Notes under the pieces: generated by a model
What the model saw: the letters and a program-made list of their open reading frames with translations, nothing else
The model's database searches: none
What the model was told of the DNA's origin: nothing
In this document: piece after piece, positions 1,913 through 53,521 of the stretch
Layout: the number at the start of each line of letters is the position of its first letter
Numbering within the stretch: position 1 is the first letter of the stretch
Source of the DNA: Promethearchaeota archaeon
GTDB lineage: Archaea > Asgardarchaeota > Lokiarchaeia > Sigyniarchaeales > SOKP01
Direction: 5' to 3'
NCBI GenBank assembly: GCA_016839915.1
Contig: JAEOTH010000028.1
Span: 15,433 to 79,432, forward strand
DNA length: 64,000 nucleotides
Made by a program: the position numbers and the translations under genes

Positions 1913-2118
1913 ATGACCGAAAATAAATTCACTCGAACTAAATGTCCACAGTGCGGAAATGAGAATCCACGTAAGCTTCACGAGGAGCCAGACAAAAATA
2001 ATGTGCTATACTACAGTATAGGTAAGGTTATTTCAACCTACCGCTGAAGCAGGGCACTCCTGTCTATGTTAAGAATATGAAGTGTGGTGGATGTGGAAAT
2101 GTTTTTAAAAAGGATTAA
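1913..2118 (+). CDS. small four-Cys zinc-ribbon protein, interrupted by a 29-nt intron (join 1913..2019,2049..2118)
   Basis: Exon 1 MTENKFTRTKCPQCGNENPRKLHEEPDKNNVLYYS, exon 2 (-1 frame) ..QGTPVYVKNMKCGGCGNVFKKD*; joined length 177 nt = 58 aa + stop. Confidence 0.6.
2020..2048 (+). other. putative bulge-helix-bulge (BHB) intron in mRNA, 29 nt
   Basis: Central helix CAGT(2014-2017)/GCTG(2043-2046), bulges ATA(2018-2020) and AAG(2047-2049), inner hairpin GGTA(A)GGTT-ATTTC-AACCTACC; removal restores frame. Confidence 0.7.
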
Positions 2119-2125
2119 TTTATAA

Positions 2126-2148
2126 TTTTTTTTTCATATTTTTTTTTT
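2126..2148 (+). terminator. oligo-T tracts downstream of zinc-ribbon gene (archaeal-type terminator candidate)
   Basis: T9 and T10 runs within 30 nt after stop codon. Confidence 0.35.
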
Positions 2149-2404
2149 ATTTTCACATGATTAATATCATATCAGAATATGGTATTTTATTAAAGATGAA
2201 AATAGAGCATTTTTCTTTGATAAATTAATCCTTGCCACTGGAAGCATTCTAAGAATTCCATCAATTAAATATACGGTATTGTAAGGGAGTTTTTACATTA
2301 CCAAAATAGATATTTCGTTAGAGGTTCGCGTAAGGAGAAACGCAATGATTAAATAGTTGTCTTTCTTATCACTCCTAATATTTATTTATTATTTGAGAAC
2401 TCTT

Positions 2405-4576
2405 ATGAAACTTACTACTCTTAAAATAAATGATTTGCTAAAATTGAGTAAAAAATTCACTTTTTTGGTAGGAGCAGGTTGTTCTGTTAGTGCTCCTTCA
2501 TGTCTTCCTGCAGGATATCCAATGATGAAAGCACTTATTAATCATACATGTGCTCAATCAGAGATTAATGATATGTTAGAATTAATGAAATTAGGAAAAT
2601 TACGATTTGAAGCTTTAGTTGAGATTATTCGAGATCAAATAGATGAAAATCTCAAACTTATCGATTACTATAATCAATGTGATAAACCAAATATCCAACA
2701 CTTTTTCTTAGCAGAGATGATAAAAAGTGGAAATTTTGTTATGACTACTAATTTCGATTATTTAATTGAGTATGCCTTAAAACACTTAGAAGTACCTCTT
2801 GAGGAGATTGTTCCAGTCATTACGAAAGAAGATTTTGAAAAATTTGCTGATCCTTATGAACAATTAAATCAAAGAAAAAAATCAGTATATAAAATACATG
2901 GTTCAACAAAAAATTTTGCTACTCAAGAAAACACAAGAGATTCTCTAGTTGCCACAATTCAAGCATTTGGATCAAACAAAGAGGGAGAAAATGTATTCCA
3001 ATTAGAACCATTTAAACGGCCTTTATTTGAAAATATCACAAAAGATCGTTCTTTAGTAGTAATGGGTTATTCTGGAAGTGATGATTTTGATATTGTCCCC
3101 ACCTTAAAAATATTAAAAAATGTTCAGAAAATTATATGGATAAATTATCAACATAATATAGAAATGGGAAAAGAACAGATATATGAAATTAATGATAATA
3201 CATTCCAATCTTTAGATAAATTGGATAGGAATTTAAAGAAGGTTACTCAGATTCTTTTTGAAATATGGCAAATGAAGAATATAAGTCAAATATACCTAAT
3301 AAATTTAAACACAGAGAAAATGGCAGAAGGGTTATTAGAGATTAAACCTCCTATAAGTAATGAAAATTTTTCCCTCGATCTTAATGATTATCTTTATAAC
3401 ATCTACCAAGATGTTATTGAATTAACTAAAAATTATATTCCTAATAGAACCTATCACGCGTTAGATATGTATTCTAATGTATTAAGGAGCAGTAAAAACA
3501 TTCTACTAATTGCGGATAAAGAAAAGTATCATATTTGGAAAGCAATTGCACTCAATGACATTGCAGAAATCTTTATTAGTCAAGGAAAATATGAAGAAGC
3601 TTTAAAAAATTTAGAAGAAGCTTTTGAGATCCCTACAATTTCAAGTAATCCATATCTGAAATCTAGCATTTTTAATAATATGGCATTAGCTTATACAGCA
3701 ATAAGGGATTATCCTGCAGCTATTAAAAGATATAAAGCATCTCTTGAAATTGATAAAAGAATGGGAGATCCAAAGAAACAAGTTGCTAGCCATAATAATC
3801 TTGGTCATTTGTATAACACTCAACAACAGTTCTCTGAAGCATTGAAACATTATAATGAAGGACTAAAAATTGCAGAAAAATTAGGACTTTTAAAAATAAA
3901 AGGTGTTATTTTAAATAATATTGGAAATATTTATGCGGCACAAAGAAATTATTCAGAAGCAAGGAAAAGAACTGGAGAAGCACTAAATATTTCTGAACAA
4001 TTGGGAAATCCAAGTCTAAAAATCGCATGCTTTTGTAATTTTGCAAGGATAAATGAATATCAAGGAAATTTTCAAGAAGCTGTGAAATTATATGAAGAAG
4101 CAAGTATGATTGCTGAAATGATAGGAGAAAGAGAAACAAAAAATTCAGTTCTTGATTTACTTAACTCAGCTAAAAAGAAACATGCGGAAACTAAAAACAT
4201 GATTGACGAGCATGGAATTTCCCAAGGAAAAAAAAAAATAAAACAAGAGATTATTTGTCATCCAAAATGGAATTCAAATGAGATAAAGAATTTTTTAAAA
4301 GGATTTATTAAACCATTTTTTGATTCATTTAGAGATTCACTCAACTGGCAAAGAGTTGAAACAAATTGTAATGAATTGAAACCAAATTTACTAGAAATCT
4401 CCTCCGGTGATAATTTTAAAGCTTCTATTTATATTGTAGAAGAGAATAAAAAGAAAAAATCTATTCAGATTGAATGGGAAGAAAGAAGTGTGGTGGCGAG
4501 ACAAGTTTGGGAAGGAATAACCAACCAATTAACAGATTTGTTCAAAAAACCAGGATTAAAATCCTTGAATAAATAA
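2405..4576 (+). CDS. SIR2-like domain protein fused to TPR repeats and a C-terminal ~110-aa domain
   Basis: ORF track 2357..4576; ATG at 2405 more likely start. FTFLVGAGCSVSAPSCLPAGYP, VYKIHGS, VVMGYSGSDDFDI (SIR2_2-like); central repeats NNLGHLYNTQQQFSEALKHYNEGLKIAEKLG etc. (TPR); C-terminal CHPKWN.. domain. Confidence 0.65.
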   Translation: MKLTTLKINDLLKLSKKFTFLVGAGCSVSAPSCLPAGYPMMKALINHTCAQSEINDMLELMKLGKLRFEALVEIIRDQIDENLKLIDYYNQCDKPNIQHFFLAEMIKSGNFVMTTNFDYLIEYALKHLEVPLEEIVPVITKEDFEKFADPYEQLNQRKKSVYKIHGSTKNFATQENTRDSLVATIQAFGSNKEGENVFQLEPFKRPLFENITKDRSLVVMGYSGSDDFDIVPTLKILKNVQKIIWINYQHNIEMGKEQIYEINDNTFQSLDKLDRNLKKVTQILFEIWQMKNISQIYLINLNTEKMAEGLLEIKPPISNENFSLDLNDYLYNIYQDVIELTKNYIPNRTYHALDMYSNVLRSSKNILLIADKEKYHIWKAIALNDIAEIFISQGKYEEALKNLEEAFEIPTISSNPYLKSSIFNNMALAYTAIRDYPAAIKRYKASLEIDKRMGDPKKQVASHNNLGHLYNTQQQFSEALKHYNEGLKIAEKLGLLKIKGVILNNIGNIYAAQRNYSEARKRTGEALNISEQLGNPSLKIACFCNFARINEYQGNFQEAVKLYEEASMIAEMIGERETKNSVLDLLNSAKKKHAETKNMIDEHGISQGKKKIKQEIICHPKWNSNEIKNFLKGFIKPFFDSFRDSLNWQRVETNCNELKPNLLEISSGDNFKASIYIVEENKKKKSIQIEWEERSVVARQVWEGITNQLTDLFKKPGLKSLNK

Positions 4577-12587: not shown

Positions 12588-13155
12588 GTGAGTGAAAAAG
12601 GAAAAATAATTGTTAAGGCTCTTGTGACTGGTGGGAGTGTATAACTTTAATGATCGTTTCGATTAGACCCCAAATGCATCAGGAGGGCCGCCTATTACAT
12701 AAAGCATATCGCTTTTGTCAAATTATGGTAAAGGCCCCTCCGTAGGACCCACAGGTATAAATATTAAAGACGTAGTAGATGAAATCAACAAGCAGACGCA
12801 GGTGTTTAGGGGACTAACAGTTCCAGTCAGAATTGAATGTGATCCCGAAACAAAAGAATTTGAAATTTTTATTGAAACCCCTTCTACAGCTTCACTACTA
12901 TTAAAAGAAGTTGGTACTGAAAAAGGGAGTTCAATTGCTTCAGAACAAAAAATTGGAAATTTAACTCTTGATCAAATTCAAAACGTAGTTGATCAAAAAC
13001 GAGAAAAATTCTTGGAGAAAACATATAAAGCATCAGTAAAAACAGTGTTAGGCACAGCTTTATCAGTAGGACTAACCGTAGAAGGAGAAGATCCAAGGAT
13101 CATCCAGAAACGAATTGATAATGGAGATTATGATGATAAAATCAGGGGTGAATAA
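12588..13155 (+). CDS. rpl11: 50S ribosomal protein L11 (uL11), interrupted by two short introns (exons about 12588..12637, 12675..12695, 12732..13155)
   Basis: GTG 6 nt after GGTGA. Spliced product [44 protein letters not shown].. is colinear with the archaeal L11 N-terminus; ORF track only shows truncated 12715..13155. Confidence 0.8.
12638..12674 (+). other. putative BHB intron 1 of rpl11, 37 nt
   Basis: Central helix TGGG(12632-12635)/CCCA(12669-12672) perfect, bulges AGT and AAT; contains in-frame TAA; removal shifts frame by +1 as required. Confidence 0.75.
12696..12731 (+). other. putative intron 2 of rpl11 (33-39 nt, boundaries uncertain)
   Basis: In-frame TAA at 12700-12702 between GGPPI and [11 protein letters not shown]; inner hairpin AAAGC-ATATC-GCTTT; several alternative BHB-like registers. 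Confidence 0.45.
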
Positions 13156-17731: not shown

Positions 17732-17864
17732 TGCGCAACGGGAGGGATTTATTCCCATAAGAAGTAATTTCTTATAATTTGAACCCCCGAGTGCATTCAC
17801 ACACTGGCTTTCTGGGTGATTTACCACTCCAAGCCAGCGCCGTACCGGGCTAGGCAACCGTTGC
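17732..17864 (-). tRNA. tRNA-Ser (GGA) with two BHB introns
   Basis: Acceptor GCAACGG/CCGTTGC, discriminator G, anticodon stem CTGGC/GCCAG, mature loop TTGGAGA, long variable arm, T arm GGGGG-TTCAAAT-CCCTC. 17-nt intron at 37/38 (17810-17826; helix TTGG/CCAG) and 30-nt intron in T loop (17749-17778; helix GTTC/GAAT); mature 84 nt. Confidence 0.8.
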
Positions 17865-19315: not shown

Positions 19316-19939
19316 TCAAGGTTTTAGATTCAACTTGTTTTGAAATTCTTTAAATATTTGATATAAATTATCTATTAGTTTTTCTTTGAAATCTGCATCA
19401 GAGAATAATCTATCAACATGATTTAAAGCTTTTTTTTGAAGAGATTCAACCTTATATAATACATCATCCAATCCTGGAAACTTACTTAAATTAAAACTCA
19501 ATTCATCAAATAAATTCAAAATAATATCATTTTTTTTTAATCCTTCTAACGTTAACGCATCCATAAGGGTTATAAAAGACGAAGTTATTTCTGAAGTGAT
19601 AGCAGGTAATTCTAAAAATGTCTGATCTTTTTGATATATTCTATTATCCGCAAGATTTAGAGAAGAGACTCGATTTATAATATCTATAGCAGAGTTATAC
19701 TCTTGATCCATTTTCATTCTCTTTAAGAGATCAGGTAAATGAATGTTATTTTCTTTCAAGGTAATGTTTAACTTAAATAGGCTATTCATAGTTGTTTTTA
19801 AAGCTTTTCTGAAGAAATTTCCATTTACAATACCTTTTTGATATTTATTATTTAAATTTGTAATTGATTTAACTAAGGCGAATAGTTCAGACTCAATTTT
19901 GTATTCAGCATCAAGATGATTATTATTATTTTCAGTCAT
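19316..19939 (-). CDS. Vps28-like (ESCRT-I) protein
   Basis: ESELFALVKSITNLNNKYQKG.. and ..ITSSFITLMDALTLEGLKKNDIILNLFDELSFNLSKFPG resemble eukaryotic Vps28 (ELFAVVKT.., SLFITVMDKLRLE..) as recalled from memory. Confidence 0.55.
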   Translation of the reverse strand: MTENNNNHLDAEYKIESELFALVKSITNLNNKYQKGIVNGNFFRKALKTTMNSLFKLNITLKENNIHLPDLLKRMKMDQEYNSAIDIINRVSSLNLADNRIYQKDQTFLELPAITSEITSSFITLMDALTLEGLKKNDIILNLFDELSFNLSKFPGLDDVLYKVESLQKKALNHVDRLFSDADFKEKLIDNLYQIFKEFQNKLNLKP

Positions 19940-21014: not shown

Positions 21015-22055
21015 TTATAGTAACTTTATTATAAAATGTGTTTTCTCAATTGAAACTTGGTAATTTCTATCCAGAAAGAATTTGATCAATTCAAGATTAG
21101 TCCTAGTATGATTTGTAACCTCAAGCACTTTTATTTTTGATGGTTCTTTAATAGTTGCCATGAAAGGAATTAATTGATCACTTAAATAATTATCAACCGG
21201 AATCTCTTTTTTGATATATGATATAATTTTATTAGCTGCTATAATTCCAAGGTCTTCTGATGTAATATTTTTTTCTCCGAGTATTGTTCCTGAAGAAATA
21301 ATTGCACCTGTATCTGAGAAAGCCCATAAAGAAAGGCCGACTCCTGGACTTAATGAATTTACATATTTAAAATTAATTCTAACTTCAATTCCTAAATTCT
21401 TATTTAGTTGAAATTCTGCGGATTTTTTAATTCTTTCACACACTTTTTTATTAATTAAATGATTGGTGCTGATAATCTCACCCTGAATTAATTCAACTTT
21501 TCCTAATTTAGTTAAATTAATTGGTTTAATTCTTTTAGGAGGATATATTGTGCATTTAGCAACCGCCCCTCCTTTAGGATAGAAACCATGTTTCAGAATA
21601 TCAATTTCAATGTTAAAACCATGATTCCTAAATATATTGTATGCTACGTGTTGAAGATAATTAAGACTAGGAGCCCATTTTCCAAATGTTCCACCTCCCC
21701 GTATAAAAATTTCAATTTTTTCTGGTTTATTAAAATTTAAACATGCAATTAGGATAGGTTGGAGTAATAATCCAATACTCCCTGCTGTTCCAATTTCAGC
21801 TTCAATATTACTTTTTATTGATTGTTTAGGGGTTAGTGTGATCTCTTTTGTCCCTACTCGACATTCTGACAATGTACTATTTGTTAATCTTGATAGGGTT
21901 TTTAAGCTCATTAAATGCTGGAGTCTCAATCCAGGCTTAGGTCTGTTTGCTCTTATATTTCTAATTCGAATAGGGCGTTGGAATAAAATTGAAAATCCTG
22001 CTCCAATCCTCAGGATTGCACCTCCTCCTTCCCCAAAGGAACCATCAATATCCAA
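21015..22055 (-). CDS. rtcA: RNA 3'-terminal phosphate cyclase
   Basis: DGSFGEGGGAILRIGAGFSILFQRPIRIRNIRANRPKPGLRLQHL. Confidence 0.85.
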   Translation of the reverse strand: MDIDGSFGEGGGAILRIGAGFSILFQRPIRIRNIRANRPKPGLRLQHLMSLKTLSRLTNSTLSECRVGTKEITLTPKQSIKSNIEAEIGTAGSIGLLLQPILIACLNFNKPEKIEIFIRGGGTFGKWAPSLNYLQHVAYNIFRNHGFNIEIDILKHGFYPKGGAVAKCTIYPPKRIKPINLTKLGKVELIQGEIISTNHLINKKVCERIKKSAEFQLNKNLGIEVRINFKYVNSLSPGVGLSLWAFSDTGAIISSGTILGEKNITSEDLGIIAANKIISYIKKEIPVDNYLSDQLIPFMATIKEPSKIKVLEVTNHTRTNLELIKFFLDRNYQVSIEKTHFIIKLL

Positions 22056-26114: not shown

Positions 26115-26286
26115 GGGCCATTTGCTTAGCTATTATCTAGACTTTCTCTAGATATCTGAAATGGTTAACAGGTTTAGAAGCTTGGTCAACAAGCGCAGGT
26201 CTTATAAATGACCATCGGACATACAATAAAAAATTGTCCGAAAAAGTAAAAACCTGAGATCCGGGGTTCAAATCCCCGATGGCCCA
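26115..26286 (+). tRNA. tRNA-Ile (UAU) with two introns
   Basis: Acceptor GGGCCAT/ATGGCCC, discriminator A, T arm CGGGG-TTCAAAT-CCCCG, anticodon stem CAGGT/ACCTG, mature loop CTTATAA. 54-nt D-loop intron 26130-26183 (helix GCTT/AAGC, bulges AGC/TTG) and 44-nt anticodon-loop intron 26208-26251 (helix TTAT/GTAA); mature 74 nt. Confidence 0.7.
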
Positions 26287-27208: not shown

Positions 27209-28582
27209 CTATTGGACTATTTGATTATACGCTTTTTCAAATCTCTCAACAGCAGATAATATATCTTTTTCTGTTACTCCAATTGCAGCATTCATTACAA
27301 TATAGGGAGTTGGATAATTAGTACAACATGTTCCAAACATTTTTTCTTTTGGATTATATACTCTTGGTCCAGTTACTCTTAAATTATAGAGAGCTCCACC
27401 AAGAGCATATAATTGTTCATCTTTTATATTTTTTAAAGATAAAGCTACTGCAACTGGATTATATATATCAAGAATTCTTTCATTTAGTTTTTCAGCAATT
27501 TCTTTGAGTTTTGTTTCAAGAATTTTACGATTTTGCTGTTGTTCTTCAATTAGTTGTTGATAACCAGTAATACCTAAAGCTAACATAGAAATTAAGAAAT
27601 TCACAATTGGAGTTGCTGAGGCACGACCTGCATATGCTTGGCTGATTTTTTTTATATTCTCTTTTGATGGAGATGCAATTACAGCCCCTCCAACTGGTGT
27701 AAGGAAATTTTTATCCGTTGACTGAATTATCGCATCAACTCTACCCGCATCAATTCCAGATCGTATTAATTGCATCCATTTAGGAGCTTGAACACCATAT
27801 GCGTTTATAATAATATGAACGAGATTATTTTGTTGAGCAAATTTACTTATTTCTTTAATATCATCATTTTCACGAGGTGGAAAAAAACTAGTAATGGAAA
27901 TGACAGCAAAACAATCATCGTCTAATTCTTTTTTTATATCTTCAATAGGAATCCTAACGGCATCCCCAAAAATCTGCCCAGGGACAATTTTTGCTTTAAA
28001 ACCTATTAAATCAATTGATTTTAAGAGTGATTTATGATCAATTTGAGGAACTAAAACAGTACGTTTAGAAATCGAATTAATGTTGCTTTGATCTGGTTTT
28101 AAAGCTCCTAAAGTTAATGATAATGACATTCCAGTACATAATGGTACAATAATTGCGTCTTTTATGTTAGGTAATCCAGTATATTTCATTATATTTCGAG
28201 CTAAATAGTTAGAAAGCTCATACATTATTGAACCTCCGGGTGCTTTTGGTTGAGCAGCGGTTAAAAAACCACTTCTTCCTACACCATGACAAAATCCAGC
28301 TGATGTTTTTAATTGTAGTTTGGAAGCAATTCTCGCTTCTCTTTCACCTACTCGCGCGGCATTATTATCTTTATCTGTATCCATATTTGAAAGCGTTTGG
28401 AGAAGGAAATCAATTTGAGCATCAGTCCAAGGTTCTTTAGGAACTGATCTTTGTTCTAGAAGAGTTTTTATAGGTTTAAGGAACTCACTCAAAACCAGTT
28501 GACCTCTAATTAAAATATTCTCTGGAATATTTAAATTTTCAAAAAATTCTATTATTTTATTAAAATCAACCATTATTAACAC
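27209..28582 (-). CDS. spcS: O-phosphoseryl-tRNA(Sec) selenium transferase (SepSecS)
   Basis: ..AARVGEREARIAS..FCHGVGRSG.., PLP-Lys motif QSTDKNFLTPVGG; adjacent to tRNA-Sec. Confidence 0.85.
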   Translation of the reverse strand: MLIMVDFNKIIEFFENLNIPENILIRGQLVLSEFLKPIKTLLEQRSVPKEPWTDAQIDFLLQTLSNMDTDKDNNAARVGEREARIASKLQLKTSAGFCHGVGRSGFLTAAQPKAPGGSIMYELSNYLARNIMKYTGLPNIKDAIIVPLCTGMSLSLTLGALKPDQSNINSISKRTVLVPQIDHKSLLKSIDLIGFKAKIVPGQIFGDAVRIPIEDIKKELDDDCFAVISITSFFPPRENDDIKEISKFAQQNNLVHIIINAYGVQAPKWMQLIRSGIDAGRVDAIIQSTDKNFLTPVGGAVIASPSKENIKKISQAYAGRASATPIVNFLISMLALGITGYQQLIEEQQQNRKILETKLKEIAEKLNERILDIYNPVAVALSLKNIKDEQLYALGGALYNLRVTGPRVYNPKEKMFGTCCTNYPTPYIVMNAAIGVTEKDILSAVERFEKAYNQIVQ

Positions 28583-28596
28583 TTATAATAATAATT

Positions 28597-28689
28597 TGGC
28601 GGCCCTCGAGGGGAATCGAACCCCTATCCCTCCGCAGGATAACTGGGTTTGAAGCCCAGCGTCAGAGACCACTCCAACCGCCAAGGGCC
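28597..28689 (-). tRNA. tRNA-Sec (UCA)
   Basis: 93 nt: 9-bp acceptor, 7-bp D stem with 4-nt loop TGGT, anticodon loop CTTCAAA, long variable arm, 4-bp T stem GGGG-TTCGATT-CCCC, discriminator G and encoded CCA. Confidence 0.9.
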
Positions 28690-28771
28690 ATACATAATAA
28701 ATATTTCTAATTCAAATTATTTACCTTTTTAAAAGAAGTTTTTGGTTATAAATAATGATTAAACAAATGAT

Positions 28772-29989
28772 TCAACAAAAAAAATCTGATACTTTTTTAC
28801 CTTCTTCAAAAATACCATTTACTTTCTTCATAACATCAGGAATATCAATCTGTTGGGGACACTTATCTAGGCATTCCCCACATTGAATACATAAACTAGC
28901 TGCTCCATCTACTTCATCACCTTCAGATAGCTTCTTTGCTAAATCTTCTGAGGTTTTTGCCATCCTGTTATAAAAGAACATTAGCCTTTCTTTACGTTTT
29001 TCACCCCAATAACTTAATTCATTTAAGAGTCTGAATACCCAAGGAATTGAAACTCCATTTGGGCACGGTAAGCAATACTTGCAACTAGTACAAGGTATGA
29101 TAATATATTTTTTATATGCTTCACGTAATTCAGAAATTATTTGTAATTCTTCTTCAGTTAAATGGTTACTTCTTGATTTTTCTGCTGATTCTAAGTTTTC
29201 TTTGACTTGTTGCATTGTACTCATACCACTTAATGCGACTGAAACTTGGGGGTGGTTCCAAACGAACTGTAACGCCCAATCAGCCATGTTTCTTTGAATT
29301 TTTGATTTATCTACAACTGCTTTAATTTCTGGTTTTGAATCTAATTTTTCTTTTGGAATTGCTAATTGCCCACCTCGAATCGGTTCCATAATTATTAAAG
29401 CAATATTTTTATCACCCGCGTATTCTACTCCTTTTGTTCCTGCTTGATAATCGATATCTAGATAATTAAATTGAATTTGACAACAATCCCATCTATAGTA
29501 ATCAATTATTTCTTTGAATACATCAAAGGTATCATGAAATGAGAAACCTATATATTTAATTAATCCTTTAGTTCTTGCGTCTTCCATCTTCTCAATTAAA
29601 TTAAACTCTTTGATTTTCTCCAATCGTTGCTTATTTAAACCGTGGAATAAATATAAATCCGGAAAAGTTTGTAACCTTTCAATCTGTTCATTGAGATATT
29701 TATCAAAATCTTCCCTATTCTTTACAGCCCAAATTGGTAATTTTGTTGTAAGATGAACTTTTTCCCTATAGCCATCTTTTAATGCTTTCCCTACAATAAT
29801 TTCACTCTCCCCATTGTGGTAAGGATAAGCAGTGTCTATATAGTTTACTCCGTTATCTACAGCATAACGGATCATCTTAATTGCTTCTTCCTCGTTAACC
29901 TTATTTTGATCAATCATAGGAAATCTCATAGCACCAAATCCAAGAACAGACACGTTCCAACCAAGCGAACCCATTTCTTTATATTTCAT
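28772..29989 (-). CDS. aldo/keto reductase with C-terminal 4Fe-4S cluster domain
   Basis: LGFGAMRFP, NYIDTAYPYHNG, C-terminal CTSCKYCLPCPNG and CIQCGECLDKCPQ. Confidence 0.8.
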   Translation of the reverse strand: MKYKEMGSLGWNVSVLGFGAMRFPMIDQNKVNEEEAIKMIRYAVDNGVNYIDTAYPYHNGESEIIVGKALKDGYREKVHLTTKLPIWAVKNREDFDKYLNEQIERLQTFPDLYLFHGLNKQRLEKIKEFNLIEKMEDARTKGLIKYIGFSFHDTFDVFKEIIDYYRWDCCQIQFNYLDIDYQAGTKGVEYAGDKNIALIIMEPIRGGQLAIPKEKLDSKPEIKAVVDKSKIQRNMADWALQFVWNHPQVSVALSGMSTMQQVKENLESAEKSRSNHLTEEELQIISELREAYKKYIIIPCTSCKYCLPCPNGVSIPWVFRLLNELSYWGEKRKERLMFFYNRMAKTSEDLAKKLSEGDEVDGAASLCIQCGECLDKCPQQIDIPDVMKKVNGIFEEGKKVSDFFC

Positions 29990-30274
29990 CTTCTTTCCAA
30001 TATATTTTTTTTTGTCTTTTAAATAAAAGATAATATTATCTGTTAATCCTTAAAATTTATGATAGTTATTGAAATTTTCTGTAATAAATTTTAGATTGGC
30101 TCTAATCTTGTTTAAAAGGTATTGTGTAAATATTATATCTAATGATAAAAAAACTTCTTCTAAATTAAAAGCAATTTAAAGCATGAATTACTAAATTTTG
30201 ACTGTTTTTCCTTTTATATTTGACTGACTGTTAATATTTTTAAAAAAAAAAATTAAGGAGAGAGTGATAAACGT

Positions 30275-30430
30275 ATGATTAGTGATACTAAATTAACTTC
30301 TAACTTGGATTTGACTAAATGTCCATTTTTATCAACATGTCTACTCCCTAAAATACAGTTTTTATGTAAAATCCCAAATTGTCGAAATTGCCCCGATTAC
30401 TCATCCAAATTAAAAAAAGTCAGTCAATAA
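30275..30430 (+). CDS. small Cys-rich protein (51 aa)
   Basis: AAGGAGAGAGTGA upstream of ATG; MISDTKLTSNLDLTKCPFLSTCLLPKIQFLCKIPNCRNCPDY..; below ORF-track cutoff. Confidence 0.3.
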   Translation: MISDTKLTSNLDLTKCPFLSTCLLPKIQFLCKIPNCRNCPDYSSKLKKVSQ

Positions 30431-30434
30431 TTTC

Positions 30435-31157
30435 TTAAAATTTACTTGTGATTCGATTTTTATACTTGATGTATTCCTTTATTTGCTTTATTTTTTCAAG
30501 TTTAAACCTTTCTAAACCTAGATCTGACATCAAAAAACCATAAACTCTTTCAATAAATGTTGAAATTAGGTATGCTGTTGCTCCCCAAACTGTATGAGTT
30601 TTATTTTTCGTTTTATCAACATAATTAAAATAAAATATAGGAAACTTCCTACCATTAATATCTACAGCTTGTTCTCTGAAATTTGTTTTTCTAATAAAGA
30701 AATTAATTGGAATTTTGAGAATTTCTTGAACTTCTCTTTCATCTCTGATTAGTTTTTGATCTTTATGAATAACTCCTATAAAAGGAGTAATTATGAACCT
30801 TGTCATTGTTGGAAAATCATCCATACATCCCAAAATGTCAACATTCTTAAATGGTACACCTATTTCTTCTTCTGTTTCTCTTAAAACGGTATCTCTCAAA
30901 GATTTGTCTAAAAGCGGGTCAAATTTCCCTCCCGGAAATGACATTTCACCTCTATGTCTTGTACCCTTATCTGCTCTATGAATTAAAATTAAATCATACG
31001 GTTTATGTTCATATGGAATTATTGAAAAAAGAACAGCTGAACTTGTAAAGTAATTATCTTTAATCGAGACTCGTAGTGGTGAATCACAAGGAAAAAATGA
31101 TCTTTTTATTAAATCTTTGTTAAAAATCAAGTTTGCTGTATCCATTTGTTTTGGCAA
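30435..31157 (-). CDS. Nudix hydrolase, CoA pyrophosphatase-like
   Basis: MSFPGGKFDPLLDKSLRDTVLRETEEEIGV. Confidence 0.7.
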   Translation of the reverse strand: MPKQMDTANLIFNKDLIKRSFFPCDSPLRVSIKDNYFTSSAVLFSIIPYEHKPYDLILIHRADKGTRHRGEMSFPGGKFDPLLDKSLRDTVLRETEEEIGVPFKNVDILGCMDDFPTMTRFIITPFIGVIHKDQKLIRDEREVQEILKIPINFFIRKTNFREQAVDINGRKFPIFYFNYVDKTKNKTHTVWGATAYLISTFIERVYGFLMSDLGLERFKLEKIKQIKEYIKYKNRITSKF

Positions 31158-31229
31158 AAATTTTAAGATATAATATATTTAAAAAACATAGTAATTTATT
31201 CTAATAAAGTTTTTAGCAAGTGTTTTACT

Positions 31230-31529
31230 GTGAAACTTCCAAAGGAAATTAAAGATAAAAGGGATTTAACCAGATTGTCTAAAAATAGAAAATGTTCGAT
31301 AAAGGGGTGTGAGGAAAATGCTATTCGTTCGCTTTCAGAAAATTCTTGGAAAAATTATATTGAAAAAGCTGGCTTAAAATTTAATAGCAATTCTTTTCAT
31401 AAGGTATATTTATGTAAACCCCATTATAATCAATCCAATAAATATAAAAAATCACAGGAAAAGATTTTTCAGAAGAAGGGATTCCTAGATAATTCAACAG
31501 CCGCTAAAAAAGGAAATTGGGAATATTAA
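31230..31529 (+). CDS. hypothetical basic protein
   Basis: 99-aa ORF, GTG start, CSIKGCEE..LCKPHY. Confidence 0.3.
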   Translation: MKLPKEIKDKRDLTRLSKNRKCSIKGCEENAIRSLSENSWKNYIEKAGLKFNSNSFHKVYLCKPHYNQSNKYKKSQEKIFQKKGFLDNSTAAKKGNWEY

Positions 31530-31702
31530 GGGATAATAACCATTTGTTCATAAATAGAATTTAATATGAGGTGTTGTCCTTGAACAATACCAATTGCTAG
31601 AAGTGATAATCCTATCAATAAAATTATTATTGCCACTAATTTATTTCTCATATTTATCGAGTTTTTAAATATTTCTTAATAAAAATATTTTTACTAAAAC
31701 TT

Positions 31703-32581
31703 TTACTTTGTCAGGTTTTCTAATGTATCAATTTTTGTTTTGATTTTTTTTAACTTTAGGTCAAAATCTTTATCTTTTGCCTTAAATTCATCTTCAGTAA
31801 TCTCTTTTGCGTGGAATCTACCTTTATTAAGTTTGCGATTTCCTGACAATTCTGTCTTTTCCAATTTCAAATCTTGAATCCATAGTTTCATTCCTGCAAT
31901 CAAATCATCACTTTCATTTTCTAAATCCATTTTTTCCTGTTTATACTTTTCTCTTAATTTTTCAAATGTTTCTCTATCAACTTTATGTAATTTATGTTCT
32001 CTTGCTAAATTTTCGAGTTGAAACACTTTGGTATCAATATCAGTTTTAATTCTTTGCACAATAAATGGTTCGTCTAAATTTTGCTTAATTACACTTTCTT
32101 TTTGTTTCATTTCGCTTATTAAAGTTTTTACTGCTTCTAATTTAACATTTATATCTTTTTTAAACTCCATATCGTATTCATATCTAGGATCTTTTGTGGA
32201 TTTTGATATTTCATTTAATTTCTCAATGAGAATTTTCTTATTAAGCTGAATATCATTATACTCAATATAATAAACCATCTGTTCTTTTACTTCTTCGGGA
32301 AGAGGTTTGGCTTCACCTTTAACTTTTAAATTTTTAAACTTTTTCTTTTCTTTTCCTTCTGTTTCCGTGCCAATAATATCTTTCTTCGCTTCTTCTTCCT
32401 CTTCCTTTATAATTTTTGGTTCTTCTTCAACTTTTTTAACTTTTTCCTTTTTAGCTGGTTCTTTTACTTCAGGTTTCCTTTCTCGTTTAGGGATATCTGT
32501 GAGTAGAGGTTTACCACATATAATGCAAAATTTATCACTTTCTTTTACTGGATTACCACAGTAAGGGCAAAATTTACTCAT
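31703..32581 (-). CDS. zinc-ribbon protein with K/E-rich linker and coiled coil
   Basis: CPYCGNPVKESDKFCIICGKPL then charged low-complexity and heptad region. Confidence 0.45.
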   Translation of the reverse strand: MSKFCPYCGNPVKESDKFCIICGKPLLTDIPKRERKPEVKEPAKKEKVKKVEEEPKIIKEEEEEAKKDIIGTETEGKEKKKFKNLKVKGEAKPLPEEVKEQMVYYIEYNDIQLNKKILIEKLNEISKSTKDPRYEYDMEFKKDINVKLEAVKTLISEMKQKESVIKQNLDEPFIVQRIKTDIDTKVFQLENLAREHKLHKVDRETFEKLREKYKQEKMDLENESDDLIAGMKLWIQDLKLEKTELSGNRKLNKGRFHAKEITEDEFKAKDKDFDLKLKKIKTKIDTLENLTK

Positions 32582-32739
32582 TTATTCATCAATTATTTAG
32601 TAAATTAGTTATATGTTATTTATAATCAAAAACCTAATTAAAATTAATTGAGTCCGATTTTTGAAATTTCTGTAATTCGAATTTAATTTTGTATTCAATA
32701 AAAATGTATATATTTTTTTAATTTTTTAAGATATTAAAG

Positions 32740-34158
32740 ATGGAAATTGAAAAGAAAATCCCGATTCACATCGGTTTATTTGGGCATATTGACTCTGGGA
32801 AGACAAAAATAGCAGAAGTACTTAGCGAGATTATTTCCACAGCAGGGATTGATGCACATCCTCAAAGTAAAGAGAGAGGTATTACCATTGATTTAGGTTT
32901 TTCCAGTTTTTTACTTGATAAATATCTAGTAACTCTAGTAGATGGTCCTGGTCATGCTGATTTAATAAAAATCAGTGCTTCCTCTGTTGAAATTATTGAT
33001 TGTGCATTAATTGTTATTGATATTAATAAGGGTCCTCAAGTTCAAACAGGAGAACATCTGATCATGGTCGAGGCTCTGAACCTTGATACAATTATTGTTG
33101 TTCTCAATAAAATTGATCTATTTATTGGTAATATCGAGGAAGAAATAAAAAAAATAAGAAAATTTTTCGGTTCAACTTCTTATGGTTATAATGTGCCTAT
33201 TTTTGCAGTTTCTGCAAAAGATAAGAAAGGATTTGAAGAATTAAAGAATGGTATTTTAGAATCAATTAATTCTTTAAAAATTGAGAGAAAACCAACAGAA
33301 GATCTTATAATTCCTGTTGATCATCATTTTCCTATAAAGGGTATAGGCGCAATATTAACTGGTACCATTTTAAGTGGTTCATTAACTTTAAATCAAAATT
33401 TGGAAATTTTACCTCTAAATACCTCCGGTAGAGTTAAAAACATTCAGATTTTTCACCAAGATGTTGATTCAGCAAAATCAGGTGATAGAGTTGGTATTAA
33501 TATAAAGGGAATTGAATTGAAGAAAGTTTATCGAGGTTGTTATGCTACATCTAATCCCAATGCTTTTGAATTTTGTAATATAATCGAGGTAGAAGTAAAG
33601 AATCATGTACTGTTCAAACCTAAAACAAGCTTTGGTACTCAACTTCATATTACTATTGGAATGTTAACCATCACTGGAAATATTTATCCTTTCTATGAAT
33701 TAGATGGAAAAAGAATTCAAACAACAATTTCAAATAAAGATCAAGGATTTAAAGCTATAATTTTATTTAAAGAGAAGGTTTTAATCAGGAAGAAGAATGC
33801 ATTTATGTTACTCAGTCGATTAGATTTACCTCCAACTACTTTAAGAATATTAGGATCAGCAGAGTTATTGAAAATTTTTAGGGAGCCCCCTATATTTTAC
33901 AAGTATAAAACTAAAAAAGGAAGTATCAAAAATCCTAATCATCCTGAGGGGATTATATGTACAGGTTTAGCGCAAAGCCCTACTGGAGCGAAGAAACTTA
34001 TTGGGAAACTATTAGACTCTCCCTTTACTAAAATATTAAGTACATTTGGTACTAAAGGTGCTGTTATAGTGGGTATTAAAGACCAAAATAAAATAGTAAA
34101 GAAAGGAGATCCCGTATTTCTCAAAGAATTAAGAAGTTTTCAACTAAAAAACATTTAA
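32740..34158 (+). CDS. selB: selenocysteine-specific elongation factor SelB
   Basis: GLFGHIDSGKT, DGPGHADLI, NKIDL, translation-factor beta-barrel domains; no EF-1alpha-type context; near tRNA-Sec/SepSecS. Confidence 0.8.
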   Translation: MEIEKKIPIHIGLFGHIDSGKTKIAEVLSEIISTAGIDAHPQSKERGITIDLGFSSFLLDKYLVTLVDGPGHADLIKISASSVEIIDCALIVIDINKGPQVQTGEHLIMVEALNLDTIIVVLNKIDLFIGNIEEEIKKIRKFFGSTSYGYNVPIFAVSAKDKKGFEELKNGILESINSLKIERKPTEDLIIPVDHHFPIKGIGAILTGTILSGSLTLNQNLEILPLNTSGRVKNIQIFHQDVDSAKSGDRVGINIKGIELKKVYRGCYATSNPNAFEFCNIIEVEVKNHVLFKPKTSFGTQLHITIGMLTITGNIYPFYELDGKRIQTTISNKDQGFKAIILFKEKVLIRKKNAFMLLSRLDLPPTTLRILGSAELLKIFREPPIFYKYKTKKGSIKNPNHPEGIICTGLAQSPTGAKKLIGKLLDSPFTKILSTFGTKGAVIVGIKDQNKIVKKGDPVFLKELRSFQLKNI

Positions 34159-47203: not shown

Positions 47204-48079
47204 TTATTCATTTTCTTCCTTTTCTTCCTTTTCTTCATTTTCTTCTTTTTCTTCATTAGGAGTTAAAGAGATCTCAGAAATATCTTGTTCATCAACATCA
47301 TCGAGGAGTTTTTTATCTTCCTCACTTATTACTCCTTCTTCCTCTTCAATTATATAATCTGCTTGAGTTTTCGCTAATTTTGCTACTTCCTGTGCTTGAG
47401 CCTTGGTAAGAAGATCCTCTTTGATTTTTATGTCATCACCCATTTTTGTATTGGCTCGCATAATTTTCACTATTATACCTAAAACTCCTGATTTCTGTAT
47501 ACATTGAGCTACACCCTTATCTACGCCTTCTTGTGCCACTTGACCACTTTTTGACATTGTACCAGCGCGAAATATCTGTGTACGAGCTCTTTGGCTAGTT
47601 ACTTTCCCTGAAATGATAATTTCAACTCCCCGAGCCCCTGCATCCATTACCTTTCTTAGGATATAATAACCTGCTCTTCTATAGTGTCTTCCTCTATCTA
47701 AACTATATGCTAACCTTTCTGACATAATCTGCGCATCTAAATCTGGTTCTTGGACCTCCTCAACTTCAATTTGGGGCAATTAGCTTGGTTTTCGATTAGA
47801 AAACAAATTTTCCAGCCCAAATTTTTCTTGGAGGACATCAGTTATCTCTTGAATGCGCTTACCGCCTTTTAGCTAATAAGTCGAAATGACTTCATACTTA
47901 CCAATGACCAGACCTGGTCTTGACGTCTTGAGGGTAATGCGCACTCCAAGAGGTGTTCGTTGTAGTTCCACTCCGGCAAATCCTGCACGGATCAACTCTG
48001 AGCGTAGGTATTCATTTATTTGCATTAGCTTAATTCCTTGCTCTATGAAATTCTTAACAAGAGGCACTTGCTTCACCAA
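47204..48079 (-). CDS. rps3: 30S ribosomal protein S3 (uS3), interrupted by two 30-nt introns (exons 48079..47898, 47867..47809, 47778..47204)
   Basis: ORF track shows two fragments (47873..48079, 47204..47779). Spliced product ..[44 protein letters not shown].. restores the KH GxxG motif and is colinear with archaeal S3; exon sum 816 nt. Confidence 0.85.
47779..47808 (-). other. putative BHB intron B of rps3, 30 nt
   Basis: ATTTGTTTTCTAATCGAAAACCAAGCTAAT; central helix TGGA/GCTA (3 of 4), bulges AAA and ATT, inner hairpin GTTTTC-TAATC-GAAAAC, outer exon-exon helix TTTGGGC/GCCC(C)AAA, in-frame TAA. Confidence 0.7.
47868..47897 (-). other. putative BHB intron A of rps3, 30 nt
   Basis: GTATGAAGTCATTTCGACTTATTAGCTAAA; central helix TGGT/GCTA (two G.U), bulges AAG and AAA, inner hairpin with ATTTC loop, in-frame TAG. 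Confidence 0.7.
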
Positions 48080-48244
48080 TGAGAGTTACTTTTTTTTTTA
48101 TCCATTCTATTTTTTCCATTCTATTTTTTTAACGTGATAAGTGAAGTAAGAAGGTATAAAATTTTAAGTTTATTAAAAAGCGATATAAATCTATAAGGTA
48201 TCAGCTGAAAACGAAAGATTTATATTGAGGGAAAAAACTTGATT

Positions 48245-48655
48245 TCATATTTTTTCTAAAAGAGGAGATAATAAACAAATTAATTCCTGGAGCTCCTTAT
48301 CAATAATATTTACTTCTCCCTCTCCCTCTCTATCTATTGTAAAATTAGTTAATTCAATCAATAACTTGAAGGACCTAACTAATTCTTCTTTTTCTTCATT
48401 ATTAATGTAATCCTTATATTCTAACAAATCATCATGAAATATTGATCTTAACAATGTGTCATAATTTGCTCCTTTATGCTCAAACTCCAAATTGAAGAGA
48501 ATCTTAATATTTCTCTCTAAGTTTTTTAACAGGTGAAGATAATTCCTTACCAAATCGAAATCTCTAAATTCTGGATTATCAGCATTCTTCAAAGAAAACC
48601 TTAATAGATTTAACAATTTATCATAATTCCTTAAAATCCTCTTTGAAGCCAACAT
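48245..48655 (-). CDS. hypothetical helical protein (within insertion between rpl22 and rps3)
   Basis: 136-aa ORF, no family recognised. Confidence 0.35.
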   Translation of the reverse strand: MLASKRILRNYDKLLNLLRFSLKNADNPEFRDFDLVRNYLHLLKNLERNIKILFNLEFEHKGANYDTLLRSIFHDDLLEYKDYINNEEKEELVRSFKLLIELTNFTIDREGEGEVNIIDKELQELICLLSPLLEKI

Positions 48656-48736
48656 AAGTCATTAAAAACATATATGTCTAATCTTAAATAATTAACTAAT
48701 TTTAGCCGAAACAAATTTATAAGAAATAGAAAATAA

Positions 48737-48952
48737 TCAAATTAAGAAATTTGACTTCACAAATCTTACTAAATCATCCCATCTATACCCTGTATAAGTG
48801 TCTAAAAACCGATTCGCATTGCGCTTTAATGAATCTAATGGATAGCCATAATCCTCATGCAATCCTAAATCAATAACAAGCTTACCCATATTATAGTGAT
48901 ACCTACTATTCCCAATTTCTTGGACATGAGAATGAAGCAGCTGAATAGCCAA
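48737..48952 (-). CDS. hypothetical small protein; frame stays open upstream to about 49024
   Basis: 71-aa ORF with TTG start. Confidence 0.3.
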   Translation of the reverse strand: MAIQLLHSHVQEIGNSRYHYNMGKLVIDLGLHEDYGYPLDSLKRNANRFLDTYTGYRWDDLVRFVKSNFLI

Positions 48953-49015
48953 CTCAAAATAATTCTTAACAGGAATATTAAGAGCTTGAAATCTTAAATC
49001 TACAAAGGAAACTCC

Positions 49016-49052
49016 TATATATAGCTATATATATATATACGCGCAATTCGCG
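49016..49052. repeat. (TA)n tract followed by GC-rich hairpin CGCG-CAATT-CGCG
   Basis: tatatatagctatatatatatata then cgcgcaattcgcg, a GC island in AT-rich DNA. Confidence 0.5.
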
Positions 49053-49122
49053 TCGCTTCGTAGAAAGGAAGTCTAAATAGCTTTTTTTGGATTTTGTGGT
49101 AATATCTAATATCTTAATTTTT

Positions 49123-49581
49123 TCAAAGAAGCTTTTCTAAGGATTTTCTCAGCAATTTCACTTGTTCTTCCAAAATTTCTTTCGTTACCATGTCAGTGCT
49201 CTCTTCTGAGAATTCCATTAATATATTGTTGATAATCTCTTCATTTAACTTGCTACTTTTCAAATCAGATTGAACCATCTTATTTATCACTGGTTCTAAA
49301 ATCTTAAAGTTAAGTTCTATTAAGTCGTTACACACTTTCACTCCTTCTTTTGTTAGGCGATACTCTCTTTTATCAGCTCCGGCAATCTGTGGTTTCTTTA
49401 TTAACCATTCCACAAGTTTTTGTTCTTTCAATTTTTTAAGTTTCATATCTAAGGTATGCCGTTTTATATCAGGGAATTTTTCCCTTAGTTTGCTTGAGGT
49501 GGTGTATTTTTCTCCAAATGAAGAGAGAAAAATAAGAAGGTTAATTGTGTCTAGAGTTCCATATAGAATTTTTTTGCTCAT
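49123..49581 (-). CDS. winged-helix (PadR/ArsR-like) transcriptional regulator
   Basis: ..SKLREKFPDIKRHTLDMKLKKLKEQKLVEWL..REYRLTKEG. Confidence 0.5.
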   Translation of the reverse strand: MSKKILYGTLDTINLLIFLSSFGEKYTTSSKLREKFPDIKRHTLDMKLKKLKEQKLVEWLIKKPQIAGADKREYRLTKEGVKVCNDLIELNFKILEPVINKMVQSDLKSSKLNEEIINNILMEFSEESTDMVTKEILEEQVKLLRKSLEKLL

Positions 49582-49646
49582 AGACAGTCATTGAGATTGG
49601 GTTTATATTTAGTAACAATTGTCAATATATTTATAATTGGTCATAT

Positions 49647-49681
49647 ATATGTTGATCATCAATGCATAATATGTTGATCAT
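49647..49681. promoter_or_regulatory. two direct copies of ATATGTTGATCAT spaced 22 bp, candidate operator
   Basis: 49647-49659 and 49669-49681, in the divergent intergenic region between 49123..49581 and 49743..49979; each contains palindrome TGATCA. Confidence 0.4.
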
Positions 49682-49742
49682 TTAAATAGTAAGATTTCTA
49701 TTATATATTTTAAAAGAAGACAATCTTCTGACCTATTTTATT

Positions 49743-49979
49743 ATGACATTGAATCGTGATGAAATTCTTTTTGCTGAGTTGTTATCATTACATTCATTGA
49801 GTTTGAAGGTTCTGGAGAAAAGAATCAAGTCAAGGATAAAACAATTAAAAAAGCAGAATCATTTATATGGAGATTTTTTTCTTAACCATATTATTTTTAG
49901 ATTTAATCGTATACTTGAATTGTTTAATAAAGTAGAGTTCAGGATATTATTTAGGAAAGTTAAGAATTCAAAAAAATAA
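49743..49979 (+). CDS. hypothetical small basic protein
   Basis: 78-aa ORF divergent from the wHTH gene. Confidence 0.3.
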   Translation: MTLNRDEILFAELLSLHSLSLKVLEKRIKSRIKQLKKQNHLYGDFFLNHIIFRFNRILELFNKVEFRILFRKVKNSKK

Positions 49980-49989
49980 CAGTTTTTCA

Positions 49990-51972: not shown

Positions 51973-51986
51973 ATTTAGTACTCCTT

Positions 51987-52955
51987 TTATTTATTATTAA
52001 TATTTAATGCATTTAATTTATTTTGAATTTCGTCTAAGAATGGCATTGATTCTTGGGCGCCTTTTCTTGTGACAGCAATAGAAGCTGCTACAGTGGCAAT
52101 TTTAACCGCATTTATTATGATTTTACCTTCACTTAGCATGCTAGCTAAAACACCAATAAAACAATCTCCTGCTCCAACAGTATCTATAGTTTTAACTAGT
52201 GGAGCAGGTAATTCATAAAACTTATTATCTTTTCCAAAATAAATTAAACACCCTTTATTTCCTAATGTAGTTATTATATAACTTATTCCTAAACTAGAAA
52301 TATCCTTTGAAGCATGTATAATTTTCTGTTTCCCTTCATTAATTAATTCTTTAAAATTTAAAAGAGAATGCAATCGAAAAAGTTCACCTTCATTAGGTAT
52401 TATTATATCCACATTCTTTAGTATTTCAATTGGAATTGGTTTCAATGGAGCTGGATTTAATATTTTTATAACATTACCTTGAGAAGCTATATAAAATATT
52501 CTTTGAATAGATTCCATCGGTATTTCCATTTGAACAACAATGATTTTTGCATTTTTGATAAGTTCTTGTCTATTATTTATATCTTCGATATTTAATTTAG
52601 AATTAGCACCAGGTGCTACGCTTATCATATTTTCCCCATTTTCATCAATTAATATGAAAGCTACTCCACTTGGGTTCTGTGGATCCCTGATAATAAAATC
52701 AATATTTATTTTTTCATCTATTAGTTGAGAGATCATCTGGTCTCCAAATAAATCAGTTCCAATTTTTCCAATAAAAATTGTTTTTGCTCCCGATCTTGCT
52801 GCTGCAACTGCTTGATTTGCTCCTTTTCCTCCTAAAAATTGCTTGAAGGTTCCCCCAGTAACTGTTTCTCCACGATTAGGAAATCTTTTAATATATATAT
52901 TTAAGTCCATATTGCTTGAACCGATTATTAAAACATAGTCATTTTCATTAATCAT
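51987..52955 (-). CDS. rbsK: ribokinase (PfkB family)
   Basis: GGKGANQAVAAARSG, TVGAGDCFIGVLAS. Confidence 0.8.
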   Translation of the reverse strand: MINENDYVLIIGSSNMDLNIYIKRFPNRGETVTGGTFKQFLGGKGANQAVAAARSGAKTIFIGKIGTDLFGDQMISQLIDEKINIDFIIRDPQNPSGVAFILIDENGENMISVAPGANSKLNIEDINNRQELIKNAKIIVVQMEIPMESIQRIFYIASQGNVIKILNPAPLKPIPIEILKNVDIIIPNEGELFRLHSLLNFKELINEGKQKIIHASKDISSLGISYIITTLGNKGCLIYFGKDNKFYELPAPLVKTIDTVGAGDCFIGVLASMLSEGKIIINAVKIATVAASIAVTRKGAQESMPFLDEIQNKLNALNINNK

Positions 52956-53208
52956 ATGATCAGCACTTAATTTGAAAAATTTTTATGATTTTAATTGTAT
53001 TTATCTCTTCTATTTATAGATCATCAAATTATTTTATTTATGATCAAGTATCATTAATAGAATGGTTTTAATTTAATCATTTTTTAAAAAGTAATATTAA
53101 ACAAATCTTTTTATATAAAATTAATCTAAATTAAATGAATTAACAACTTAAAAAAAAATAAGGAGTTGAACCACAATCGCAAAAGATAAGTTAATAGGAG
53201 CGATAGTT

Positions 53209-53521
53209 ATGGTGGTTGGTATCCTAATCGCTATCATTTATACTTTAGGTTCTGTCGTAGATCTCTACATGATAAAACTTGGGGGTAGTCCGAGAGGAAT
53301 CGACCTTACTTCAAGCTGGTTTTTTGGAATTGATTTACTTAGTTGGGAACTCTTCGTCGTCTTACCTATGTGGCTTTTAGTAATTTTGATAGCAATTATT
53401 GCTATTTGGATTGGATATAGTATGTTAACCACACCAGCGCCTGTTCCACTCGAAGCTATCTACTGCTTATCGCAGAGATATCGAACAATTGGAAGAGGAA
53501 CTAGCTGCTGAGGAAGAATAA
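53209..53521 (+). CDS. small 2-TM membrane protein with acidic C-terminus, interrupted by 31-nt intron (join 53209..53455,53487..53521)
   Basis: ATG 8 nt after GGAG. Spliced C-terminus ..TTPAPVPLEELEEELAAEEE*; exon sum 282 nt. Confidence 0.6.
53456..53486 (+). other. putative BHB intron in mRNA, 31 nt
   Basis: Central helix TCGA(53450-53453)/TCGA(53481-53484) perfect, bulges AGC and ACA, inner hairpin TATCT(A)CTGC-TTATC-GCAGAGATA; removal gives the required +1 shift. Confidence 0.75.

Follow-up and report, generated by a model that had tools for sequence, protein, structure and literature searches.

Short bulge-helix-bulge inserts as candidate mRNA introns in protein-coding genes of a Promethearchaeia genome, including those for ribosomal proteins L11 and S3

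How might an archaeon express ribosomal protein genes whose reading frames are broken by short inserts? The question arises from a stretch of 64,000 nucleotides of contig JAEOTH010000028.1 from a Promethearchaeota archaeon (GenBank assembly GCA_016839915.1, positions 15,433 to 79,432), referred to here as the window. Six inserts of 29 to 37 nucleotides (nt) break four of its genes by in-frame stops or frameshifts, and excising them gives uninterrupted proteins, of which two are ribosomal (L11 and S3), one is a zinc-ribbon protein, and one is a small protein of the membrane. We consider it highly probable that all six are mini-introns of the bulge-helix-bulge (BHB) type that are removed from mRNA; the splicing step and its enzymes are what we infer. 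What is seen directly is that the genes are interrupted precisely, that the independently set junctions have BHB geometry, and that there is covariation, conservation across species, and purifying selection on the spliced frames. The host lineage, Promethearchaeia, comprises Loki-type Asgard archaea, the group nearest to eukaryotes.

Six inserts in four genes

The inserts were compared with syntenic loci from metagenome-assembled genomes of Promethearchaeota and Lokiarchaeia, labelled L001 onward, among which ENA contig L003 and Logan contigs L027 and L028 are nearest to the window. Junctions were set first, by DNA and protein alignment to intron-free relatives, and BHB geometry was fitted afterwards under a rule in which four exon bases pair with four intron bases (helix H), the bulges are 3 nt long, and each cut falls after the second bulge base. 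When sequence and translation were re-read, all six inserts lay where an initial annotation of this DNA had placed them, and alignment fixed the second L11 insert, which it had located only approximately, at 12696-12731 (36 nt). Its claim that excision fuses the frames into conserved L11 and S3 held as well, the spliced products matching intron-free relatives at the junctions. The comparison of syntenic loci that it had proposed revealed both shared sites and exact absences. Independent assemblies of other Promethearchaeia have five of the six inserts at matching positions, and the sixth (site 6) is absent from L028. The junction-spanning peptides predicted after excision are GGSASGGPPIGPSV, VIGKGGKRIQ, FGLEMPQIEV, PLEELEEEL, and LYYSMQGTPV.

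The L11 gene lies on the plus strand and holds two inserts. Exon 1 (12588-12637, GTG start) is followed by intron A (12638-12674, 37 nt), a 21-nt exon 2 encoding ASGGPPI (12675-12695), intron B, and exon 3 (12732-13155). Intron A forms H as TGGG/CCCA, with bulges AG|T and AA|T and a hairpin loop GTTTC. The BHB of intron B is relaxed, with H as GCCT/TGGT (3 of 4 pairs), a hairpin loop ATATC, and a strong outer helix between the exons. Across 100% of its length, spliced L11 has 92% identity to the intact protein of relatives, its N-terminus VTGGSASGGPPIGPSVGPTGINIKD agrees with that of all relatives, and DNA alignment shows that intron-free genomes (L005 to L013) lack exactly the A and B blocks. 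Intron A is shared with L003, L004, L014/L034, L015, L035, and L038, and its H covaries with a glycine codon of the exon: GGT goes with CCCA (TGGG/CCCA) in four sequences and GGA with CCCT (AGGG/CCCT) in two. Intron B is shared with L003, L014/L034, L018, and L038; its H has all four pairs in L014 and L038, against three in the window, and compensatory changes have preserved its hairpin, ACA(T)AAAGC/GCTTTTGT versus ACTTAA(A)GC/GCTTAAGT. Across Promethearchaeia the first ~100 nt of the L11 gene are an intron hot spot, with four positions, A to D, within about 75 nt (the locus lies at 10091-10141 in L016/L017). The third position, intron C, occurs in relatives only; its H reads GCAT/ATG[TC], or GTAT/ATAC in L040, and 66 of 66 cells are paired (100%), with G-U intermediates. 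Position D is unique to L035 (4947-4998; H GGCT/AGCT), and metagenome contig L038 carries three introns in its L11 N-terminal coding region (902-1079).

The S3 gene, on the minus strand, is also interrupted twice. Its three exons occupy 47898-48067 (GTG start), 47809-47867, and 47204-47778. Intron a (47868-47897, 30 nt) sits in the GKGG motif of the KH domain and forms H as TGGT/GCTA, which holds two G-U pairs, with bulges AA|G and AA|A and a hairpin loop ATTTC. Intron b (47779-47808, 30 nt) forms three of four pairs of H (TGGA/GCTA), an outer exon-exon helix GGGC/GCCC, and a 6-bp hairpin with the loop TAATC; its excision creates the methionine codon A|TG. Across 100% of its length, spliced S3 has 95% identity to the intact protein of Promethearchaeota metagenome-assembled genomes, neither S3 junction peptide (VIGKGGKRIQ or FGLEMPQIEV) varies among nine relatives, and the S3 DNA of L001 and L002 lacks exactly both 30-nt blocks. 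Intron a recurs in L027/L028, with H as TGGT/GCCA and compensatory differences in the hairpin, and is absent from L001, L002, L023, and L029. Intron b is shared with L023 to L028; H has two of four pairs in these relatives, and the hairpin stem is kept through compensatory changes. Public protein data contain numerous S3 entries of 172 to 197 amino acids with the S3_C domain only, which suggests that split S3 genes may be common. Upstream of the S3 gene, about 1.9 kb of extra DNA in the L22-S3 interval (48068-49989) splits the conserved ribosomal-protein operon. This DNA is absent from L001, L002, L027, and L028 and contains an HxlR-like helix-turn-helix open reading frame (ORF; 49123-49581, minus strand) and three small ORFs without assigned function. 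No terminal repeats were found around the block.

The zinc-ribbon gene has two exons, with exon 1 (1913-2019, plus strand) carrying the first CxxC and exon 2 (2049-2118) carrying the second in another frame unless spliced. Removing the 29-nt intron (2020-2048; H CAGT/GCTG, bulges AT|A and AA|G, an 8-bp hairpin with the loop ATTTC) gives the protein MTENKF...CPQCG...LYYSMQGTPVYVKNMKCGGCGNVFKKD, in which CxxC...CxxC is regained, and the junction YYSMQG is present in the intron-free homologue of L013. The intron has identical site and length in L004, L005, L014, L016, and L017. Over the six species, 93% of cells in its structure are paired, against 14 to 54% with the partners slid, and four pairs show compensatory double changes. 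One of the pairs in H goes from C-G to U-A by a synonymous exon change matched by a change in the intron. This site is without an outer exon-exon helix. The L016 gene carries a second intron (about 2857-2887) at another CAGTAT site. This intron repeats the H (CAGT/GCTG) and the bulges of the first and resembles it in its body, and it looks like a duplication or transposition that would have been guided by an exon match of 4 to 6 nt. Downstream of the zinc-ribbon gene lies an ORF of 739 amino acids with SIR2-like and TPR-repeat regions (2357-4576). L004 and L005 carry different genes at this place, and the ORF may represent the insertion of a defence or NTPase-like gene.

The site-6 gene encodes the small membrane protein. 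Its exon 1 (53209-53455, plus strand) is separated by a 31-nt intron (53456-53486) from exon 2 (53487-53521), which encodes ELEEELAAEEE and then a stop. The intron has an outer helix UUCCA/UGGAA, H as TCGA/TCGA, a bulge AG|C, and a hairpin loop TTATC, and the insert is predicted to adopt a full hBHBh'-like fold, with z = -3.0 and an equally good fold in 0 of 200 shuffles. After splicing, the C-terminus ...TTPAPVPLEELEEELAAEEE is identical in L001, L002, L028, and L029, as is PLEELEEEL at the junction in four relatives, and the DNA of L028, whose protein is 97% identical, lacks exactly the 31 nt. From this distribution the intron looks like a recent gain. The ATG start of the relatives reads ATC in the window (53176-53211), and the probable start of translation is the ATG farther downstream, at 53209, which is also the one called in L028.

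All of the spliced frames that could be compared between lineage pairs sharing an intron are under strong purifying selection, with ratios of nonsynonymous to synonymous substitution rates (dN/dS) of 0.03 to 0.13 at dS of 0.6 to 1.6. The S3 ratio was 0.08 between the window and L027 (dS 0.62) and 0.07 between the window and L023 (dS 1.37); the L11 ratios were 0.10 to 0.13 and that of the zinc-ribbon gene 0.03. Where relatives offer a comparator for the window (22 to 40 kb has none), tblastn and blastn found no interrupted genes beyond those with the six inserts.

Junction geometry and a family shared with tRNA genes

The cuts predicted by the BHB rule, after the second nucleotide of each bulge as the initial annotation had proposed, coincide with the junctions set independently by intron-free homologues. 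Helix H has four of four pairs for the zinc-ribbon intron, L11 intron A, S3 intron a, and site 6, and three of four for L11 intron B and S3 intron b. The 4-bp helix with two 3-nt bulges that had been drawn for five of the inserts is complete at four of the six sites and relaxed at the other two. At random placements, four of four pairs arise at a rate of 2.5% and at least three of four at 17%. Counting relatives, there are nine mRNA intron positions with more than 30 instances, and at seven of the nine H has four of four pairs in every instance. All six inserts contain an inner intron hairpin; site 6, S3 intron b, and L11 intron B have an outer exon-exon helix in addition. The BHB core reappears in the minimum-energy folds of the zinc-ribbon intron, S3 intron a, and site 6, while those of L11 intron B and S3 intron b show the outer exon-exon helix plus the intron hairpin.

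Exon and intron covary within H in the zinc-ribbon intron and in L11 introns A and C, and hairpin stems, with compensatory changes in L11 intron B and both S3 introns, have been preserved by way of double changes and G-U intermediates. That G-U pairs occur in H as well as in the stems indicates structure in the sense-strand RNA, not in the DNA. We regard the covariation as supportive, not statistically decisive, and the case for splicing, made from sequence comparison, rests on homology together with covariation.

The hairpins themselves point to relatedness. Seven of eight 5-nt hairpin loops in the window end in TC, compared with 5.3% of comparable hairpins in the window (P ~1e-8), and the regularity that the initial annotation had noticed holds. 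In the window and relatives together, nearly every intron hairpin has a loop of 5 nt with UC as its last two bases, mostly closed by C-G, and tRNA introns have the feature too (CTTTC in tRNA-Ile intron 1, AAATC in the anticodon intron of tRNA-Ser). Multiple non-canonical tRNA introns that transpose are known from Thermoproteales, where related introns at different sites imply mobility. The introns described here belong to one structurally related and probably mobile family, members of which also sit at non-canonical sites within tRNA genes of this genome. What selects a new insertion site appears to be a 4-base match of the exon to the 3' segment of the intron, given the duplicated L016 zinc-ribbon intron at CAGTAT and the four L11 positions within ~75 nt. 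More broadly, we think it likely that Promethearchaeia harbour an active, mobile family of ~30-nt BHB mini-introns that colonises protein genes, core ribosomal ones included, as readily as tRNA genes.

Two tRNA genes of the window served to calibrate the rule. The gene for tRNA-Ser(GGA) (17732-17864, minus strand) has two BHB introns, one at the canonical 37/38 position (17810-17826, H TTGG/CCAG) and one in the T-loop (17749-17778, H GTTC/GAAT). The latter is polymorphic, being absent from L004 and L016 and present in L005 to L008, L010, and L014. The gene for tRNA-Ile(TAT) (26115-26286, plus strand) has three (26132-26161, 26168-26190, and 26208-26251). In all five tRNA introns H has four of four pairs. 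Intron removal leaves 75 nt for tRNA-Ile and 85 nt for tRNA-Ser, and ARAGORN recognises both; the calibration reported earlier thus stands as to the rule, with its lengths of 74 and 84 nt one base off. On the raw window, ARAGORN and an Rfam scan at the gathering threshold detected tRNA-Sec only and missed the intron-bearing tRNAs, and tRNA-Ile is visible to ARAGORN only after intron removal. Brute-force removal of BHB candidates from the tRNA genes at a lax ARAGORN threshold was also tried; it produced many spurious tRNAs, and the introns were derived by hand instead. The anticodon of tRNA-Ile is TAT (UAU), and two of its three introns are in the D-loop. The usual decoder of AUA in archaea is a CAU-derived tRNA, unlike the tRNA-Ile(TAT) found here.

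Splicing and its alternatives

We propose that the inserts would be transcribed within the pre-mRNA, where the four exon bases upstream of the 5' junction would pair with the four intron bases upstream of the 3' junction to form H, flanked by the two 3-nt bulges and the intron hairpin. The tRNA-splicing endonuclease EndA, presumably of the broad-specificity (alpha-beta)2 type, would then cut after the second base of each bulge, and a ligase of the RtcB type would join the exons. Splicing of this kind would put all four interrupted genes back into frame. The multi-intron tRNAs of the window imply an EndA able to cut relaxed (HBh') motifs. An (alpha-beta)2 EndA with an L1 loop that has been linked to relaxed BHB recognition is reported throughout Asgard archaea (PMC5829648).

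Several observations weigh against this proposal. The 64-kb window contains no EndA or RtcB gene, and the nine predicted spliced proteins had no exact match in a collection of 15 billion proteins. Helix H is missing from the predicted minimum-energy folds of L11 introns A and B and S3 intron b, has only two or three of four pairs in S3 intron b, and only three of four in the window copy of L11 intron B. Most sites are without an outer exon-exon helix, which means that a broad-specificity enzyme would be required. The alignments behind the covariation are small (six sequences each), and their sequences are related. A scan for the family signature, a 5-nt loop closed by C-G together with a complete H, gave 331 matches in the real sequence and 313 +/- 43 in shuffled ones, and a scan for frame-restoring BHB configurations gave thousands of candidates in the window. 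With motif-only matches no commoner than in shuffles, structure alone carries little information, and the shuffled-sequence control that the initial annotation had envisaged neither supports nor refutes its claim. Since the scans performed at chance, they were replaced by the homology-anchored test of the BHB rule described above. A strict BHB scan was likewise discarded as a discovery tool, with ~9,900 matches per strand and only two of the six sites recovered.

Among other ways of accounting for the inserts, excision by a nuclease or ribonucleoprotein that recognises the hairpin, with its 5-nt NNNUC loop closed by C-G, and not by EndA, seems to us unlikely. The strongly non-random loop (7 of 8 against 5.3%), which to our knowledge is not a requirement of EndA, and the weak central helices of S3 intron b and L11 intron B would both suit such an enzyme. 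However, the junctions fall exactly at the second and third bulge bases beside a covarying 4-bp helix, which is the signature of EndA, and the same elements occur in tRNA genes, the canonical 37/38 intron included. Shared ancestry within a mobile family would explain the loop feature as well, and a separate loop-recognising nuclease is unnecessary. Self-splicing introns of group I or group II were considered too, and were ruled out by the size of the inserts and by the Rfam scan, which detected tRNA-Sec only; the ribozyme core of such introns takes hundreds of nucleotides.

Programmed translational bypassing, in which the insert stays in the mRNA and the ribosome hops over it, is a still less probable account. 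Known bypass elements, in T4 gene 60 and in mitochondria of Magnusiomyces, are hairpin inserts of 27 to 55 nt in otherwise intact coding sequence that act during translation and need matched take-off and landing codons. The inserts resemble them in size and in their hairpins, and at S3 intron a a hop from AAG to AAA would even yield the same protein. Ribosome hopping nevertheless fails on the codons. The serine codon AG|T at L11 intron A exists only after joining, the unspliced L004 gene reading AGA there; S3 intron b needs A|TG and offers no matching landing codon; and L014 lacks the AAG/AAG match that could have served in the zinc-ribbon gene. Moreover, the same type of element interrupts tRNA genes, which are not translated, and covariation between the upstream exon and the 3' end of the insert is no feature of bypassing. 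That the inserts are scars of mobile DNA which nothing removes, leaving pseudogenes or truncated products, is very improbable, even though gene prediction treats the fragments as ORFs that are separate or truncated. S3 is essential, the dN/dS values given above apply to both sides of the inserts in the spliced frame, and the introns persist at the same sites across species; the syntenic loci show no second copy of the genes, and the inserts have no consistent target-site duplications or terminal inverted repeats. Assembly or sequencing error has next to no probability as an explanation. The same inserts, with sequence variation, are present in NCBI, ENA, JGI, and Logan assemblies from different samples, and this independence effectively refutes it.

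Known systems, significance, and neighbouring genes

A BHB intron in the cbf5 pre-mRNA of Crenarchaeota was reportedly described by Watanabe in 2002 and Yoshinari in 2006, and was treated by Yokobori in 2009 (PMC2738675). The statement in the initial annotation that archaeal coding-region introns of this type are documented essentially for cbf5 agrees with the literature, in which cbf5 is described as the only coding-gene BHB intron in archaeal mRNA (PMC7714728, PMC12397907, PMC2738675), with the addition of one case in a 5' untranslated region of Haloferax (PMC7714728, PMC12397907). The cbf5 intron resembles those described here in its patchy gain and loss among relatives (PMC2738675). However, that system concerns one gene in Crenarchaeota, whereas here six introns lie in four genes within 64 kb of an Asgard genome, L11 and S3 included, one relative (L038) fits three introns into ~100 nt of coding sequence, and the family is shared with tRNA genes. 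The present introns thus fall outside a narrow cbf5-type definition, their hosts being the L11, S3, zinc-ribbon, and membrane protein genes and their lineage Promethearchaeia. The Haloferax volcanii intron, in the 5' untranslated region of HVO_1309, was validated in vivo and in vitro as an mRNA substrate of EndA (PMC7714728); it is a single case that breaks no coding frame, unlike the interrupted frames reported here. Atabeyarchaeia and Freyarchaeia, two other Asgard lineages, are reported to have very intron-rich tRNA genes with introns at non-canonical positions (PMC11291895). Those introns are like the present ones in being relaxed BHB (HBh') elements at many positions (PMC11291895), and tRNA-Ser and tRNA-Ile of the window are typical examples of multiple non-canonical tRNA introns. 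The tRNA reports concern tRNA genes only; in the window the element also lies in ORFs, where its removal must restore the frame as well. In the openly searchable literature, subscription-only sources being outside its reach, no description of BHB introns in Asgard protein-coding genes came to light, and the papers cited here say nothing of introns in such genes; an earlier description may nevertheless exist.

A eukaryotic parallel is offered by HAC1 and XBP1, from whose mRNAs IRE1 excises a very short intron (26 nt in XBP1), with a change of frame and joining by an RtcB-family ligase. The endonuclease (IRE1) and the motif (twin stem-loops) differ from those proposed here, and the eukaryotic process is regulatory, which leaves an analogy of logic only.

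If the inserts are spliced, archaeal mRNA splicing by the tRNA-splicing machinery would be regular in the lineage closest to eukaryotes and would affect essential ribosomal proteins; if the active mobile family is real, routine mRNA splicing by protein enzymes would be part of normal gene expression in Promethearchaeia. Because archaeal transcription and translation are coupled, this would bear on how interrupted genes could be tolerated before there was a nucleus. The predicted recognition rule would call for a 4-bp helix between exon and intron, a pair of bulges, and an NNNUC hairpin, and the lineage would offer a natural system in which to follow intron gain, loss, and spread in prokaryotic coding genes. 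For annotation, intron-bearing genes are now called as fragments or pseudogenes, and such fragment calls would then bias Asgard marker-gene sets, genome-completeness estimates, and ribosomal-protein phylogenies.

The window has a G+C content of ~30% and a gene content typical of Asgard archaea, including VPS28 (19316-19939), a Roadblock/LC7 protein, and a selenocysteine gene cluster. An RtcA gene, for an RNA 3'-phosphate cyclase, to which the initial annotation had drawn attention, is indeed present (21015-22055), but it gives no specific evidence for introns. The same conserved neighbourhood occurs in L004 and L006, and RtcA is not specific to introns because L006 combines it with an L11 gene that has none. 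The selenocysteine cluster (27209-34158) comprises SepSecS (27209-28582, minus strand), tRNA-Sec (28597-28689, minus strand), and an archaeal SelB (32740-34158, plus strand).

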